Below are positions 1 to 56,468 of a stretch of DNA of 64,000 nt, one piece after another. Below the pieces are notes generated by a model. That model did no database searches. It was not told the origin of the DNA and saw only the letters and a list, made by a program, of their open reading frames with translations. Source of the DNA: Anaerolineae bacterium (GTDB lineage Bacteria > Chloroflexota > Anaerolineae > SpSt-313); assembly GCA_034428955.1 (NCBI GenBank), contig DAOUGZ010000024.1, positions 5,804-69,803 of the forward strand. Direction: 5' to 3'. A program made the position numbers and the translations under genes. Numbering within the stretch: the first letter of the stretch is position 1; each line of letters opens with the position of its first letter.

Positions 1-120
1 TTCAGCAAGAGCACAAGCAGTTCTGCGCCCCCTGGGCGCCACATAGTTCAGCAAGAGCACAAGTAGTTCTGCGCCCCCTGGGCGCCGCATAGTTCGGCAA
101 AAGCACAAGCAGTCTGGCAT
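1..120. repeat. Tandem direct repeat, unit ~46 bp, ~2.6 copies (ttcagcaagagcacaagcagttctgcgccccctgggcgccacatag). Each unit contains a GCGCC..GGCGC hairpin-capable core.
   Basis: Units at 1-46 and 47-92 differ at 2 positions; a third, degenerate partial unit follows. Seen directly in the sequence. Confidence 0.8.
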
Positions 121-199
121 CTTGGCCGCGCTTCCGAGGCGCCGGTTAGCGACAACCCGCACCACTCGACCCGGCCGCACTCTGTCAATAGGAGGAGGA

Positions 200-13713: not shown

Positions 13714-14940
13714 CTAGCCGGCCAGGCTGGTCAGGCACTCCAAGAGCTGTGCCTGTCTGACCGGCTTGCGCAGGTAGGCATCGGCGCCCAGCGAAGTTGC
13801 GAGTTGCGGCTCGTCGAGTACAGAGCAGACGACGACCGGAATCCCGGACAACCGGGGCTCTGCCTTGAGTTGCTGTAACACCTCCCAGCCATCGATCTCC
13901 CTCATCATCACATCCAGCACCACCACATCAGGCCGAATCTCCCCGATGCGCTCAGCCGCGTGCAGTGCATCGTCGATGGCGGCGAGCCTGTAGCCGTGGC
14001 CGGCGAGGTAGCGCCGGAAGAGCGCGACCACGTCTTGATTGTCCTCGACGATGGCCACGGTTCGCTCGCGCTCGGCGGCGAGCAGGGAGAGCGCCAGTTG
14101 CCAGGTGTTGCCGGCCTGGTCGCACGTTACGTGCGCTCCCTGGGCACGGGCCAGGACCGTGATCGCCTCCGGCAGGTCGTGCGCTATTGCACCCTCGATC
14201 TCGGCGGAAAGCGTGCATACGACCTGGGCCTGCTGCCTTTCCAGGCGAACCGTCAGCGGCCTGGGGCTTTGCAGGCGGATGGCGTGGGAGAGCGCCGCCA
14301 AGAGCAGTTGGCGGAAGAGGGCGGGGTCACCGCTGATCAGGAGCGGCACGCTCGTGCGCTGTTCGATCAGGGCAGTGCCCTGCTGGGCGGCCAGCGCACG
14401 GGCAGATGTCATGGCGCGCTCGAACTGCTCGCCGGCCTCAAAAACCTGTTGCTCGACGGCGACTCGCGAGATCTCTTGCCACAGCGCATCGTTGCTCGCT
14501 GTGCCGGCGGGCTGGGTGCCCACGGCCGCTTGCTGCCTGTCCAAAAGGGCGATGGCCAGCGCGCGCAGCGCACGCCGCTGCTCGCGTTGGATCTGCCGCC
14601 GGCCGAGGCCCAGTTCCCGCTCCATCTCGGCCAGTTCCTGGCCGAGGACATAGCGGTGATGCAACACGGCATAGGGCCGCCAGGCAGCATCCGCCGGCGG
14701 CGTATCCAGGCTGGGGCGCAATTCCTCAATCAGCGCCAGGATCAGGCGGCGCAGCTTTTGCACCGCCATACGGCTGTCTGCGCCCAGCAGAGGCCGCAGG
14801 CGCTGCAAGAGCGGATGGTTGACCAGGTAGGCATAGTCGTAAAAGTGGCTCATCGCATCGCGCGTTTCGTCGAGAAAGCCGTCAGGGATAGGGTTCAAGA
14901 TTTCTGTCGTTCCTTTGTCGCAGTCGAGTCGCGAATCCAT
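13714..14940 (-). CDS. Response-regulator-type protein: N-terminal HTH-like domain, a degenerate middle domain and a C-terminal receiver domain.
   Basis: C-terminal REC (VAIVEDNQDVV..VVLDVMM..LRKP). Convergent with the hybrid histidine kinase. Confidence 0.7.
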   Translation of the reverse strand: MDSRLDCDKGTTEILNPIPDGFLDETRDAMSHFYDYAYLVNHPLLQRLRPLLGADSRMAVQKLRRLILALIEELRPSLDTPPADAAWRPYAVLHHRYVLGQELAEMERELGLGRRQIQREQRRALRALAIALLDRQQAAVGTQPAGTASNDALWQEISRVAVEQQVFEAGEQFERAMTSARALAAQQGTALIEQRTSVPLLISGDPALFRQLLLAALSHAIRLQSPRPLTVRLERQQAQVVCTLSAEIEGAIAHDLPEAITVLARAQGAHVTCDQAGNTWQLALSLLAAERERTVAIVEDNQDVVALFRRYLAGHGYRLAAIDDALHAAERIGEIRPDVVVLDVMMREIDGWEVLQQLKAEPRLSGIPVVVCSVLDEPQLATSLGADAYLRKPVRQAQLLECLTSLAG

Positions 14941-15011
14941 AGAAACCGGCGTCGCTAGACACTATAATGAATTATAGCGCATTGATGGCTGCTGGCAACG
15001 GAGGCAGTTAA

Positions 15012-15109
15012 TGCTCAACCTTGCGCAAGCTCCAAGGCGTGCCAGCTCGAGGGCAGCTTGCTCAGCCAAGATGTGCTCCGTCAGGACTCGTCTTGGAGCT
15101 CTCGCAAGG
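15012..15109 (+). promoter_or_regulatory. Conserved upstream element, copy A (~98 nt; core CCTTGCGCAAGCTCCAAGG at 15019-15037 with the 10-bp palindrome CTTGCGCAAG).
   Basis: Sequence similarity to copies at 30362-30380, 35731-35749 and 44838-44856 (minus). ~75% identity over ~90 nt with the copy upstream of the DNA methyltransferase. Confidence 0.6.
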
Positions 15110-15134
15110 ATTAAAGGAGTTAGAGGAACCACTC

Positions 15135-17462
15135 GTGGAACGCACAAAAGATGCTCTCGACCAGGTCTATACTTGCGAGGTGTTGGTGATTGGCTCTGGT
15201 GTGTCGGGCTACTGCGCCGCCATCCAGGCCGGCCGGGCAGGCTGCCGGACCATACTGCTGGAAAAGGATGCCGTCCTGGGCGGCAACTCGGGACCCGACT
15301 GTGGCGTGGGCATCACCGGCGCTGACCGCTACAACCCCTACGGCACCGAGACTGGCCTGATTCACGAGCTGCAGGAAGATGCGGCCTGGGCCATGGCCTT
15401 TACGCAGCTTCAGCCCCATGCCATGCCCTACAACATCTCGCGGCGCAATGAGGCCATCGTGCAGCAAAGGCTCGAGGAAGCGGGCGTGCGCGTGCTCAAG
15501 CGCCATTACGCGCGCCGACCCGTGCTGGGCGCGGATGGACGGATTACGGCCGTCATCGTCGAGGACCTGGCGGCTTTCCAGACGGTGCGCATCGACGTGG
15601 AGAGGGTGGTCATCGAGGCTTCCGGCGACGGCGAGATTGGCTTGCTGGCCGGCGCGGACTATGACCAGGGCTCTGAGGCGCAGAGTGAGTACGGCGAGCG
15701 CTCGGCCCTGCCCACGCGCTCCAGTTGGGTGCAGGGCACGAGCCTGGTGGCCATCGCGCAAAAGACCGATCACGAGGTCGTTTTTATCCCGCCGGCGGAC
15801 CTGCCGCCGTTCCAGCCTCGCGTCTGGCAGGGACAGATCGGCTCGCTTGTGCACCATCATGACGGCTGGTTCAAGGGCCCCGAGGGGATTCGCTTCCTCT
15901 ACGTCACCGAAGCCGGCGGCAACATGGATACCGTGCGCCAGGACGGCGAGGTTTACGAACTGCTGCTCAAGCAACTCTGGGCAGAGTGGGACCATATCAA
16001 GAACGGCCCTCACCGCGAGGAGGCGCACAATTGGGACCTGCTCTGGGTCAGCCCCAAGGCGGGCAAGCGCGAGAGCCGCCGCCTGCTGGGCGATGTGGTA
16101 CTGACCCAGACCGACCTCGAAGAAGGGCGTCTGTTCCCCGATGATATCGCCTATGGCGGCCACGATCTGGACGACCACCGCCCACTGGGCTCGGGCGGCA
16201 ACATCTTTGCCCACAGCGTGCCGCCGATGTACGGCATTCCCTACCGTGCTTGCTACTCGCGCAACGTGCCCAATCTGCTCCTGGCAGGGCGTCTGATCTC
16301 GGCGACCCATCTGGCCCACTCTTCCACGCGCCTTATGCGCACCGGCGGCGCCATCGGCCAGGCGGTGGGGCTGGCGGCGGCGCTCTGCTGCCGATACGGG
16401 TGCACGCCGCGCCAGGTGTACGAGGCGCATCTGGACGAGCTACAGCGCGAATTGCTCCTGGCCGACGGCACCATCCTGGCGCGCCCGCTGCCCGCCGAGG
16501 GCGACATGGCGCGCTCGGCGGCCGTGACAGCCACTAGCGAGCTGCGCTACAACGACCAGGAGCCGGGCGAGTTCGTCCCCTTGATTACCCAGGCCGGCGT
16601 GGTGCTCTGGGACTGGCCGGCCGTGCTCGAGTCTGTAGAGGTGTGCCTGCGCAATGATACGGCCGAGCCGCAGCCGCTCGTGCTGACGGTGTATCGCGCC
16701 CGGCGCGAACGCAAGTGGAAGAGCATGGACGAGTACGAGGCTCACGCCCGCGACGACCTGCGCGATACGGCCTTTGCGGAGCTGGGGCGCGTTTCGGTTA
16801 CGGTGCCGGCCGGGCACTGCGGTTGGCTGCCCATTGCATTCGCAGAGCCGATGGAGCTGGGCGAGAAAGACTGCGTTAGCGACGACGACCGGGTGATCAT
16901 CGCCCTGGGCGAGAATCAGGCCCTGCAATGGGCGCTGGCCGGCAGGCCGCTGGCCATCGCCGAGATGGTGGAGCACGCCCACTTTAGCCCGTGCTGGCGG
17001 CGCCTGGGCGTCATGGCCACCCTGCGTATGGCGCCCGCTCCGCCGTTGGGCGAGGCGACCAATGCCGTCGACGGTTACCACCGCCGGTTCTCCAGTGGGC
17101 CTACCCACATGTGGATGTCCGACCCGGCCCAGGGCCTGCCGCAGGACCTGCTGCTCACCTGGCCCGAGCCGGTTACCGTTAGCGAGGTCTGTGTGACCTT
17201 TGATAACCTCTGCCGCCTGCGTCACGAGAACCCGTGGGAGAACGCCACCCGTGTGGCGCCCCATCTGGTGCGGGCCTACGAACTGGCCTACTGGCAGGGC
17301 GACGGCTGGCAAGAGCTGGCCCAAGTAGAGGACAACTACCATCGCTTCCGCCAACACCGCTTTGCGCCGATCACGACCGACCGCATCCGGCTACGGGTTG
17401 TGGCCGTGTATGGGGGCCAGGCCCAGGCACGTGTCTATCAGGTGCGTGTGGGTAGACGCTAG
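15135..17462 (+). CDS. FAD-dependent oxidoreductase (GIDA/FAD_oxidored-type Rossmann N-terminus) with a C-terminal discoidin/F5-8-like domain.
   Basis: VLVIGSGVSGYCAAIQAG dinucleotide-binding motif. Start uncertain (GTG 15135, or TTG 15021 lying inside the conserved element). Confidence 0.7.
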   Translation: MERTKDALDQVYTCEVLVIGSGVSGYCAAIQAGRAGCRTILLEKDAVLGGNSGPDCGVGITGADRYNPYGTETGLIHELQEDAAWAMAFTQLQPHAMPYNISRRNEAIVQQRLEEAGVRVLKRHYARRPVLGADGRITAVIVEDLAAFQTVRIDVERVVIEASGDGEIGLLAGADYDQGSEAQSEYGERSALPTRSSWVQGTSLVAIAQKTDHEVVFIPPADLPPFQPRVWQGQIGSLVHHHDGWFKGPEGIRFLYVTEAGGNMDTVRQDGEVYELLLKQLWAEWDHIKNGPHREEAHNWDLLWVSPKAGKRESRRLLGDVVLTQTDLEEGRLFPDDIAYGGHDLDDHRPLGSGGNIFAHSVPPMYGIPYRACYSRNVPNLLLAGRLISATHLAHSSTRLMRTGGAIGQAVGLAAALCCRYGCTPRQVYEAHLDELQRELLLADGTILARPLPAEGDMARSAAVTATSELRYNDQEPGEFVPLITQAGVVLWDWPAVLESVEVCLRNDTAEPQPLVLTVYRARRERKWKSMDEYEAHARDDLRDTAFAELGRVSVTVPAGHCGWLPIAFAEPMELGEKDCVSDDDRVIIALGENQALQWALAGRPLAIAEMVEHAHFSPCWRRLGVMATLRMAPAPPLGEATNAVDGYHRRFSSGPTHMWMSDPAQGLPQDLLLTWPEPVTVSEVCVTFDNLCRLRHENPWENATRVAPHLVRAYELAYWQGDGWQELAQVEDNYHRFRQHRFAPITTDRIRLRVVAVYGGQAQARVYQVRVGRR

Positions 17463-30231: not shown

Positions 30232-30244
30232 GAGCCAGGGTCCG

Positions 30245-30292
30245 GTGTTCAGAGCGCCACGGTGAGTCCTCACCGTGGCGCTCTGAACACCG
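30245..30292 (+). repeat. Perfect 23-bp inverted repeat with 3-nt loop (ggtgttcagagcgccacggtgag tcc tcaccgtggcgctctgaacacc).
   Basis: Begins 14 nt after the stop at 30231; no T-run follows. Confidence 0.8.
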
Positions 30293-30361
30293 CTGCAGGT
30301 CTTGCCCTTCCGTTTTGACTCCTCCACTTCCCCATACTACAATGACCTTGGTTGTTCTGCA

Positions 30362-30380
30362 CCTTGCACAAGCTGCAAGG
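30362..30380 (+). promoter_or_regulatory. Conserved motif, copy D: CCTTGCACAAGCTGCAAGG (perfect 7-N5-7 dyad), 80 nt upstream of the dehydrogenase start.
   Basis: 18/19 identity to the copy A core. Confidence 0.55.
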
Positions 30381-30459
30381 CTGCTGAGCGCCGCGCTCGG
30401 CGGCGTGGGAGCCGCCCCGGCTTACCCGCCAGGATTCCAGCAGCCTATCGGAGGAAACT

Positions 30460-35709: not shown

Positions 35710-35730
35710 TATCGACTCCAGGTTGCTCGA

Positions 35731-35749
35731 CCTTGCGCAAGCTCCGAGA
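35731..35749 (+). promoter_or_regulatory. Conserved motif, copy C (CCTTGCGCAAGCTCCGAGA; palindrome CTTGCGCAAG at 35732-35741), 23-32 nt upstream of the divergently read permease start.
   Basis: Flank gctcgacc matches the gctcaacc / gctcagcc flanks of the other copies. Confidence 0.55.
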
Positions 35750-35848
35750 CTCGCCGGCCTACACGGAAAGCGGTTTCACCGCCAAGGCTGCCAAGTGACG
35801 CAAAGGAAACCTGCATAGAGTTGCGCACCCGTCGGGTGGCCGCCTATA

Positions 35849-43888: not shown

Positions 43889-44737
43889 TTACTCCTTGCG
43901 CATGATCAGCACATTCTGATGGATGATATTGGGCACATAGGCATAGGGGTAACCGTAGGGGCGGATGCGCGTGCCGGTGGCGTACCAGATGTGCACGCCT
44001 TTGAGGACAAAGCCCACTTCCTTGTAGCGCTCGGCGAGGTGGTAGGCGGTGGGGATGTACTCGCCGCCCTGATAGGCATCGCGCACGATCAACACCAGGT
44101 AGCGCCGCGGCCGCAGCACGCGCAGGAGCTTGACCCCGATGCGTTGCATGGCCGCGAAAAAAGCCGCAAAGCTGTCGAGGTTGCTCAGATCGGCCGGATC
44201 ATCGCTATACTCGACATAGCCGCTACGACGATTGGGCCGGTTGTAACCGGCGTTCGCCGCCGCGCCGGACATGGTCTGCCGCAGACGGATCGAGTAAGGG
44301 GGATCGGTGGCGATGAGGTCCACGCTGTCATCGGCCAGAGCATCGAGGAGCGCCTCGCAGTCGCCGCAGAGCACCGGATGCGGCCGGATGCCCTCTCGCT
44401 CGCAGACCTGGCGGTAGATGGCAATCGAGCGGGGGTTGATCTCCATCCCCAGCGAACGGCGGCCCGCCAGGTGGGCGCCGAGCAGCGTCCCGCCCGCCCC
44501 GGCAAAGGGGTCCAGCACCAGGCCATCGCGCTTGGTAAAGAACTCGATGATACTCTGCATGAGCTGCGGCGGCTTGTTGCCGCCTTGGCGCCGCCGCAGG
44601 TCGTGGCCCAGGATGGAGGGGTAAGACGTCCTGAGTACGCTCTTGGTAAAGTACATCCACTCCGCGCCGCTCAGTTCATTCAACTGGTTCTGGGGATGCA
44701 CCCCACCATTGGTCTCTCCGTCGCCGCGTTCGGCCAT
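43889..44737 (-). CDS. DNA methyltransferase, likely N6-adenine (FxGxG motif I followed ~60 aa later by DPPY motif IV); no restriction endonuclease gene adjacent.
   Basis: DPFAGAGGT and DPPY motifs. ATG 44737 after AAGGAG; the longer TTG-initiated ORF to 44854 lies inside the conserved upstream element. Confidence 0.8.
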   Translation of the reverse strand: MAERGDGETNGGVHPQNQLNELSGAEWMYFTKSVLRTSYPSILGHDLRRRQGGNKPPQLMQSIIEFFTKRDGLVLDPFAGAGGTLLGAHLAGRRSLGMEINPRSIAIYRQVCEREGIRPHPVLCGDCEALLDALADDSVDLIATDPPYSIRLRQTMSGAAANAGYNRPNRRSGYVEYSDDPADLSNLDSFAAFFAAMQRIGVKLLRVLRPRRYLVLIVRDAYQGGEYIPTAYHLAERYKEVGFVLKGVHIWYATGTRIRPYGYPYAYVPNIIHQNVLIMRKE

Positions 44738-44744
44738 CCATACT

Positions 44745-44856
44745 CCTTCGTTATCAAATCCGAAACTTTGCGAAAGCCTCAGGTCGACTCCCAACCCGAC
44801 ACGGCGTGGCTGAGCAAGTTGCCCCCGGGCCGGCGAGTCTTGGAGCTTTTGCAAGG
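44745..44856 (-). promoter_or_regulatory. Conserved upstream element, copy B (core CCTTGCAAAAGCTCCAAGA at 44838-44856 on the minus strand; ~75% identical to copy A over ~90 nt).
   Basis: Fills the intergenic space between the SPFH-gene stop and the methyltransferase ATG. Confidence 0.6.
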
Positions 44857-44867
44857 CTGAGCGCGTG

Positions 44868-56415: not shown

Positions 56416-56468
56416 ATAGAGATTCTGATGGATGCGAACCGCCCCATGCGACGCCATGTTACTCATCA
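56416..56468 (+). repeat. Dispersed ~50-nt intergenic element, copy 2 (tagagattctgatggatgcgaaccgccccatgcgacgccatgttactcatca).
   Basis: ~85% identical to 2053-2103; begins 3 nt after the pgi stop. Confidence 0.7.

Follow-up and report, generated by a model that had tools for sequence, protein, structure and literature searches.

The question raised by this locus is what kind of element precedes two unrelated genes of an Anaerolineae bacterium, one encoding an FAD-dependent oxidoreductase and the other a DNA methyltransferase. In both copies, here called A and B, a TTG-initiated reading frame continues in phase into the downstream gene. The preliminary description had preferred a non-coding role, namely a structured leader or an extended operator, over an N-terminal extension, and had kept a conserved leader peptide as a live option. 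The 64,000-nt stretch of DNA that was analyzed as a whole is referred to as the window. We consider it fairly likely that A, B and a third copy C, and probably also a fourth copy D, belong to a small, non-coding, lineage-specific family of imperfect-palindrome repeats resembling MITEs or ERIC sequences. A dispersed palindromic repeat accounts better for the observations than a leader or operator serving the downstream genes.

Copies of the element in the window

Four copies were recognized, of which D is an additional locus absent from the preliminary description.

15013..15109, + strand: copy A, an imperfect palindrome of ~97 nt, full-length and best preserved (nhmmer E 8e-29)
44766..44862, - strand: copy B, full length, decayed
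35725..35786, + strand: copy C, the left ~60% of the element, with an indel (nhmmer E 2e-9)
30356..30389, + strand: copy D, similar in the core alone (16/18; 71% over 35 nt; E 0.027)

The likeness of A and B had been put at about 75% over about 90 nt, and an ungapped identity of 73.7% over 95 nt was obtained here. Within the 64-kb window, A (15013-15107, + strand) matched B (44862-44768, - strand) with a blastn E value of 1.4e-11, and a repeat search of the window returned the same pair (100 nt at 73%). The limits first given for B, 44745-44856, were slightly off; the homology covers 44768-44862 and identity beyond it is 33%. The described exchange of CTCGAG in A for CCCGGG in B was present in the alignment. 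We found no support for a link between these XhoI/SmaI-like palindromes and the adjacent DNA methyltransferase, and set the idea aside.

The conservation between A and B was arranged in blocks. The left end (21/24), the apex (17/19) and the right end (14/20) were more conserved than the two interior blocks (8/13 and 11/21), which is the pattern expected if the ends and the apex are the recognized parts. The element is laid out as 18-nt inverted ends, a 6-nt left extension GCTCRR that has no mirror on the right end, and a conserved apex GGCARCTTGCTCAGCCA. Copy A also matched its own reverse strand (nhmmer E 4e-6). The inverted ends of A are the following.

15019..15036, + strand: left terminal core of A, CCTTGCGCAAGCTCCAAG, which holds the TTG and a 10-nt perfect palindrome CTTGCGCAAG
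15092..15109, - strand: right terminal core of A, matching the core in inverted orientation (16/18)

Allowing up to three mismatches, the core CCTTGCGCAAGCTCCAAG was found at five sites in the window against 0.14 expected, every one of them intergenic. Two of these sites are the inverted ends of A and one is locus D (30362). The right arm of B agrees with the core at 13/18 positions (our own count from the sequence), and no inverted core pair other than that of A was found in the 64-kb window. Copy C is 86% identical to B over 35 nt. The segment GACTCGCCGGCC is common to B and C and differs in A, while the apex is common to A and B and differs in C; such a mosaic of shared segments suggests a larger family.

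All four loci fall within the ~10% of the window that lies outside long ORFs. Copy A is located in the 5' UTR of the FAD-oxidoreductase operon, with the GTG start 25 nt downstream, and copy B between the stop codon of an SPFH/Band_7 gene (44868) and the methyltransferase ATG (44737). Copy C lies 16 nt upstream of the start of an FtsX-like gene (35709, minus strand) and points away from it. Copy D precedes a Zn-alcohol-dehydrogenase gene (ATG 30460), within its 5' UTR, and lies 18 nt downstream of a promoter-like TTGACT-17-TACAAT. The genes flanking the copies are unrelated to one another, and the orientation of C is opposite to that of its neighbouring gene. The genes and promoters around A and B are listed below.

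15135..17462, + strand: FAD-dependent oxidoreductase (PF12831), 775 aa, GTG 15135 being the true start
43889..44737, - strand: N6/N4 DNA methyltransferase (PF01555), 282 aa, ATG 44737 being the true start
14940-14968, + strand: sigma-70-like promoter, TAGAAA-17-TATAAT
14998-14971, - strand: divergent sigma-70-like promoter, TTGCCA-16-TATAAT

The + strand promoter places copy A inside a + strand transcript. The divergent promoter block (14940..14998) was partly conserved in the relative L045.

Relatives and wider searches

The element was absent from the orthologous intergenic regions of nine relatives over the two loci. The relatives compared were L012 and L043-L046 at the FAD locus, and L013-L016 and L047 at the methyltransferase locus. 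The neighbouring genes of the element are syntenic housekeeping genes. At the FAD locus the spacer is 104 nt in the relatives versus 194 nt here, and that between the SPFH and methyltransferase genes is 77-80 nt (L015, L016 and L047) versus 130 nt here; the intergenic flanks of the relatives have diverged too far for an exact empty site to be delimited at either locus. With the element missing there, it cannot be regarded as a leader or operator conserved with these genes, and the role first proposed for it is not supported.

In L014, the SPFH-to-methyltransferase spacer contains a RAYT-like Y1 transposase flanked by repeat arrays. The presence of a different mobile repeat system in the same spacer suggests that this site accepts such elements. 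The L014 transposase had no tblastn match in the window, and the element showed no similarity to the L014 repeats.

Further copies were not detected in species-representative genomes, JGI metagenome contigs, viral contigs or plasmids, the last also giving nothing by BLAST. Neither nhmmer nor a core search with four mismatches found a copy in ~250 kb of the relatives' loci (partly redundant), and none was present in ~150 kb from the closest DnaK relatives (90-92% identity). The core pattern CTCNNCCTTGCNNAAGCTCCNAG had three matches in species-representative genomes, six in JGI metagenomes and none in viral contigs. These were chance-like matches in unrelated organisms and were confined to the pattern, except for a doubtful 33-nt match in L004. 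The apex pattern occurred in 16 viral contigs, again with no similarity outside it. Neither the window nor the genome, metagenome, viral and plasmid collections yielded a parent IS or transposase sharing these ends, which could still be carried elsewhere in the host genome. A limited check of the literature returned nothing specific on the palindrome, on Chloroflexi MITEs or on such a family in Anaerolineae.

Comparison with known repeats

Bacterial MITEs are non-coding elements of 70-300 bp with terminal inverted repeats of 15-30 bp, such as Correia/NEMIS of Neisseria and RUP of Streptococcus pneumoniae (PMC3733652). The present element, at 95-97 nt, has no credible coding capacity, given the lack of a significant codon signal and of peptide relatives. 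Terminal inverted repeats of 18 bp (16/18) are present in copy A; in B the right arm is down to 13/18. As in MITEs, the copies are all intergenic and occur in either orientation relative to neighbouring genes, some are truncated or decayed, and the ends are better conserved than the interior. The relatives, within their diverged flanks, lack the element at the orthologous sites. Its dispersal was counted in one 64-kb window, where two copies are full-length, one is partial and one is core-only. It differs from MITEs in that no parent IS or transposase with its ends was found, no target-site duplication is demonstrable and the left GCTCRR extension (6 nt) is not mirrored on the right. TTAA is present 1 nt outside each end of A, with no equivalent at B, where the nearest direct repeat is TAAC, 4 and 15 nt away.

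The ERIC or IRU sequences of Enterobacteriaceae are imperfect palindromes of ~127 bp that lie in transcribed intergenic regions and affect mRNA stability. Here, too, the entire element is an imperfect palindrome, beyond inverted ends alone, and its location in 5' UTRs and intercistronic spacers would cause it to be co-transcribed as a long hairpin. It differs from ERIC in having no sequence relationship to it, in its host phylum (Chloroflexota) and in being known from four loci in 64 kb.

REPs are 20-40 bp in length and end in GTAG or CGTC (PMC3733652). The element and the REP/BIME sequences associated with RAYT (REPtrons) are both extragenic palindromic repeats, and the L014 RAYT-like Y1 transposase occupies the same spacer as B does here. 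However, the element is ~95 nt long without a terminal tag and the window has no Y1 transposase. GTAG/CTAC is absent from A and B, and CGTC is internal in A and absent in B, so assignment to the REPs was rejected. Rickettsia palindromic elements are inserted in frame within ORFs (PMC3733652). They are likewise palindromic, of similar size and open in several frames, and can seem to add residues, but the present element precedes the true start codons, and the homologues show that the extension does not belong to the proteins. An integron attC site was rejected: the left end of A, GCTCAAC, fits RYYYAAC, unlike GCTCAGC in B and GCTCGAC in C, the right end lacks a complementary GTTRRRY, and the neighbours are not cassettes. 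An IS200/IS605 end was also considered and rejected.

Transposition, or copying, into intergenic DNA is the most likely origin of the copies. Later decay would have left A nearly intact, degraded the right arm of B, reduced C to a partial copy and left only the core at D. If transcribed, as 5' UTR in A and D and as intercistronic spacer in B, the element would form a long stem-loop just before the RBS. Such a stem-loop could change mRNA stability, processing or read-through, and an effect on the mRNAs carrying it is possible. Both the mobility of the repeat and any function that it may have are inferred. The family would be a previously undescribed small repeat family in Anaerolineae, of a kind already known; the finding is real but ordinary, and no open question hinges on it. 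Should the complete genome turn out to contain many copies, the family could be useful as a strain marker, or as a case of inserted hairpins taking over 5'-UTR or terminator positions.

Folding of the element

Alternatively, the element could be a cis-acting structured RNA, a 5' leader or intercistronic hairpin located ~25-30 nt before the start codon, which controls translation, RNase processing or read-through. We regard this as unlikely. The long-range pairing reported earlier was real in A, where the arms are the inverted 18-mers (16/18), but B pairs much less well. A 131-nt region around A folded with -53.1 kcal/mol (z = -3.0), forming a long hairpin in which GGAG of the right arm pairs with CUCC of the core. 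The z-scores of B (-0.43) and C (-0.29) were no better than those of shuffled sequence. Some A/B differences keep local palindromes, as in CTCGAG versus CCCGGG; against this, threading the structure of A onto B broke 10 of the 32 pairs, with one compensatory change. The hairpin of B is decayed. Neither strand folded consistently better (for B, -41.2 antisense versus -37.9 sense).

The placement of A and B speaks for such a role. Their orientation is alike, and the distance from TTG to start codon is 114 nt in A and 117 nt in B. We estimate the chance of sharing both orientation and start-codon distance at ~5%, so that a position-dependent cis function keeps some plausibility. In the relatives, unrelated strong hairpins occur at both of the same intergenic positions, suggesting that a hairpin there may matter. 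However, the element itself is not conserved upstream of the orthologous genes, and copy C has no gene downstream of it in its own orientation. Rfam identified no family, whether the whole window was searched at gathering thresholds or A and B by E-value; the matches were noise, namely miRNA-precursor models (E 0.5-6). A riboswitch or leader family was rejected on the combined basis of the orthologues without the element, the unrelated downstream genes, the ratio of compensatory to broken pairs and the lack of an Rfam match.

The core as an operator

A second alternative, which we hold to be improbable, is that the 18-nt core is the operator of a lineage-specific DNA-binding regulator. Copy A would then be an inverted operator pair, and the regulon would consist of the gene beside C and those that follow A and D. 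The core is the best-conserved part of the element and recurs at D, which shares little else. It has dyad symmetry, both as the perfect 10-nt palindrome CTTGCGCAAG and as CCTTG-N9-CAAGG, and lies just downstream of sigma-70-like promoters, 18 nt past the -10 in D and ~45 nt in A. A common, carbohydrate-related control of the oxidoreductase/sugar-ABC operon and the Zn-dehydrogenase is plausible. On the other hand, the A/B homology of 95 nt is far longer than a protein-binding site and includes the conserved apex, which an operator does not need. Beyond the palindrome the conserved core continues asymmetrically, as GCTCC-AAG. Promoter-like sites were not seen near B, which directly follows a stop codon, or at C. 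The orthologous promoters of the relatives have no such core, and no candidate regulator was identified.

The element could also be, instead of selfish DNA, a lineage-specific cis-regulatory module with a long hairpin, a conserved 18-nt core recognized by a protein or RNase, and a conserved apex. It would have been recruited ~25-30 nt before the starts of several unrelated genes, where it replaces the unrelated hairpins of the relatives and places these genes under common transcriptional or post-transcriptional control. We consider this quite unlikely.

The TTG reading frames

The weakest alternative, and a very improbable one, is that the TTG frame is translated, giving either an N-terminal extension or a leader peptide upstream (MRKLQ..PARGQLAQPR..) borne by the element. 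The two frames are as follows.

15021..15134, + strand: spurious TTG-initiated extension, 38 codons upstream of the oxidoreductase gene
44738..44854, - strand: spurious TTG-initiated extension, 39 codons upstream of the methyltransferase gene

As described before, the frames of the peptides LRKLQGVPARGQLAQPR.. (A) and LQKLQDSPARGQLAQPR.. (B) are open and in phase with the downstream genes, and copy C has a 21-codon ORF. The peptide of C departs from those of A and B after residue 9 and ends after its 21 codons, and D has no corresponding ORF. The earlier observations on ribosome binding sites were also reproduced. At both TTGs the nearest GGAG is 16 nt upstream, too distant to serve as an RBS, whereas GAGGAA/GGAG precedes GTG 15135 and ATG 44737 by ~5-6 nt.

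Homologues support the downstream starts. In 118 of 119 oxidoreductase homologues the Rossmann motif lies 9-37 residues from the N-terminus; here it begins at 19 from the GTG and would begin at 57 from the TTG. The four closest methyltransferase homologues all start at the position of ATG 44737. The gene records agree, as P0001 (775 aa) and P0121 (282 aa) are 100% identical to the two proteins and start at GTG 15135 and ATG 44737, respectively.

The differences between A and B were flat over the three codon positions (7/8/9). Amino-acid identity was highest in the TTG frame (20/31 versus 14-17 in the five other frames), but its permutation P of 0.06, obtained before correction for six frames, was not significant after it. 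Codons 8-17 (PARGQLAQPR) have only synonymous A/B differences; however, the three transitions spaced with period 3 equally keep overlapping DNA palindromes (AGCT to GGCC, CTCGAG to CCCGGG). A profile of the two TTG peptides, searched against 1.84 billion representative proteins, returned one low-complexity protein and nothing real. Homologue N-termini, codon signal and peptide search therefore agree with the original preference for a non-coding role, and they largely exclude the leader peptide or extension. The sense frames contain few stop codons (none in any frame of A, none in two of the three of B), and both starts lie ~115 nt away in the same phase; the TTG ORFs are thus by-products. What looks like a 'conserved peptide' is conservation of the nucleotides seen through one frame, a reading-frame accident. 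In GC-rich genomes, stop-free palindromic repeats can mimic conserved N-terminal extensions or leader peptides in this way, and the present case shows how they may be dismissed during annotation. A 104-codon ORF starting from an SD-plus-ATG at 15000-15013 is out of the oxidoreductase frame and absent in B and C, and we judged it spurious.

Distribution and anatomy of the repeat element

The repeats A, B and C, and probably a fourth locus D, fairly probably constitute a small family of non-coding, imperfectly palindromic repeats of the MITE/ERIC-like kind. This is supported directly by a 95-nt homology, inverted terminal cores and placement between genes in unrelated contexts and differing orientations, and also by absence at orthologous sites and lack of coding signal. 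Five sites matching the 18-nt core CCTTGCGCAAGCTCCAAG with at most three mismatches were detected in the window (0.14 expected), namely A-left, A-right (inverted), B-left, C and D. The D core (30362-30379, 16/18 to the core) was absent from the preliminary description.

Copies of the element and their contexts
15013-15107, plus strand: A, downstream of a divergent promoter-like pair and within the 5' UTR of an FAD-oxidoreductase/sugar-ABC operon
44862-44768, minus strand: B, directly past an SPFH stop codon, ahead of a DNA methyltransferase gene
Copy C: ahead of an FtsX-like permease gene by 16 nt and oriented away from it
30356-30389: D, 18 nt past a promoter-like site (TTGACT-17-TACAAT), within a Zn-alcohol-dehydrogenase 5' UTR

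All four loci fell within the approximately 10% of the window outside long ORFs, and their gene contexts were mutually unrelated. The likeness of A and B, previously put at about 90 nt, was borne out by an ungapped alignment of 95 nt with 73.7% identity (blastn within the window, E 1.4e-11), and a repeat search of the window returned the same pair over 100 nt at 73%. Directly outside this stretch identity was 33%. The limits earlier assigned to B were a few bases off, the homology extending from 44862 (six bases upstream of CCTTG) to near 44766. The long-range pairing described in A was real, the same 18-mer standing at both ends in inverted orientation (16/18). Searching the window with a profile of copies A, B and C recovered some 60 nt of C (E 2e-9), the reverse strand of A (E 4e-6) and, weakly, D (E 0.027); A is therefore a near-complete imperfect palindrome.

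Conservation between A and B fell in blocks.

Identity of A and B by block
Left end: 21/24
Interior 1: 8/13
Apex: 17/19
Interior 2: 11/21
Right end: 14/20

Since GACTCGCCGGCC was common to B and C, with A differing, and the apex was common to A and B, with C differing, this mosaic suggests a larger family.

Orthologous loci in related genomes

The host is an uncultured member of the Anaerolineae; the DnaK of the window matched proteins from related MAGs at 89-92% identity, and those MAGs that carry names were Anaerolineae bacteria. At the oxidoreductase locus, five syntenic relatives (L012 and L043-L046) have the response regulator, the divergent promoters and the oxidoreductase in the same order, share even part of the promoter block, and lack the element. 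At the methyltransferase locus, the gap between the SPFH and methyltransferase genes was just 77-80 nt in L015, L016 and L047, without the element, and L013 contained 688 nt of unrelated sequence there. Some 150 kb of sequence surrounding DnaK in the nearest relatives contained no copies. The element is thus lineage-specific at both sites, and this speaks against its being a conserved regulatory leader.

The same spacer in L014 (1060-2125; ENA ERZ4756918 NODE_17880) encoded a 111-aa Y1_Tnp protein (PF01797, RAYT-like) flanked by three direct repeats of about 101 nt upstream and three inverted copies downstream, each with a GCCC-TAC-GGGC hairpin (GTAG on the opposite strand). This arrangement is a REPtron-like unit.

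Structural and regulatory alternatives

The preliminary description preferred a structured leader or extended operator; its non-coding character was correct, while the regulatory roles were not supported by the orthologous loci, pairing or Rfam. That the element is a cis-acting structured RNA serving the downstream gene seems unlikely. A and B do share orientation and a near-equal distance to the start codon (TTG at 114 versus 117 nt), the 131-nt region of A folded at -53.1 kcal/mol (z = -3.0), and relatives carry strong, sequence-unrelated hairpins at the matching intergenic positions: a 5'-UTR region with a fold of -53 kcal/mol at the position of A (L012 9945-9985), and a 16-bp stem past the SPFH gene at that of B (L015 1197-1233, L047 1075-1120). 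However, threading the structure of A onto B kept 19 pairs and broke ten, with a further two altered on a single side and one on both; the folds of B (z = -0.43) and C (z = -0.29) were not above those of shuffled sequence, B folded better as antisense than as sense, and Rfam gave no match to the element.

It is similarly improbable that the 18-nt core is an operator for a DNA-binding regulator, a role with which its position just past promoter-like sites at A and D would agree. Both alternatives could draw on the 10-nt word TGCCAGCTCG, shortly followed by GCAGC, which is common to the interior of A (15040-15058) and the orthologous oxidoreductase 5' UTR in L045 (about 1160-1185); the word also occurs in L043, L044 and L046, and at the three positions where A differs from B these relatives side with A. 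The sharing between A and L045 (P about 0.015 by shuffling) is probably due to chance after several comparisons.

Coding potential

An N-terminal extension or leader peptide was largely excluded by homologue N-termini, recorded starts, and the lack of codon signal and peptide relatives. The frames opening at TTG inside the palindromes of A and B do translate in phase with the downstream genes, and C has a 21-codon ORF, as reported before. The recorded starts are the downstream ones (oxidoreductase P0001, 775 aa; methyltransferase P0121, 282 aa). Of 119 oxidoreductase homologues, 118 have the start of their GxGxxG motif 9-37 residues in from the N-terminus (mode 19); in the window protein the motif begins at 19 from the GTG and would begin at 57 from the TTG. 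Of the methyltransferase homologues, the nearest four (80-83% identity) begin where the ATG at 44737 lies; longer ones have an N-terminal segment that is unrelated. Neither TTG has a usable ribosome-binding site, as had been stated, although GGAG lies 16 nt upstream of both, too far; the SD-like sequences claimed for the downstream starts were found about 5-6 nt upstream of both.

Differences between A and B were spread over codon positions as 7/8/9. The TTG frame gave an amino-acid identity of 20/31, against 14-17 for the remaining five (permutation P = 0.06 for the TTG frame alone, non-significant after six frames), and the all-synonymous run PARGQLAQPR reflects three period-3 transitions that also keep overlapping DNA palindromes, plus a few other changes. 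Because stops are lacking in every sense frame of A and in two of three in B, an open upstream extension is expected, and the coincidence reduces to shared phase only (about 1 in 3). A two-peptide profile run against 1.84 billion representative proteins matched solely a low-complexity repeat protein. The element is non-coding, and the upstream ORF extensions arise by accident of reading frame.

At the left edge of A, GGAGG followed after 6 nt by ATG (15000-15013) opens a 104-codon ORF (15011-15325) outside the oxidoreductase frame; this ORF is Arg-rich, has no counterpart in B or C, and was judged spurious.

Comparison with known elements

The element fits the size, inverted-repeat and non-coding criteria of MITEs (PMC3733652); no parent IS was found, and the copies known are the four loci of the 64-kb window. 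It falls outside the REP definition, which calls for 20-40 bp and a GTAG or CGTC tag (PMC3733652), and was rejected as an attC site or riboswitch. Taken as a MITE/ERIC-like family, its copies would have landed in intergenic DNA and then decayed to differing extents. Searches for a transposase, an unambiguous target-site duplication and an exact empty site of the element found none; it may be mobile, and its hairpin may affect mRNAs containing it. The repeat family itself is new, the type of element already known.

Other repeats in the window

Directly past a histidine-kinase gene, 24-bp arms form a perfect inverted repeat around a 2-nt loop (30243-30292); it is probably a terminator, though without a T-run. 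At the start of the window (1-138), a 46-nt unit, TTCAGCAAGAGCACAAGCAGTTCTGCGCCCCCTGGGCGCCACATAG, is repeated head to tail in three copies (96% and 63% relative to copy one), which lack spacers and are therefore not CRISPR-like. A separate 49-nt pair (2054-2102 and 56418-56466, 90% identity, AGAGATTCTGATGGRTGCGA..GCCATGTTACTCAT) lies at or beside gene boundaries, one copy overlapping a listed ORF start, and resembles a further small dispersed element or a common signal.
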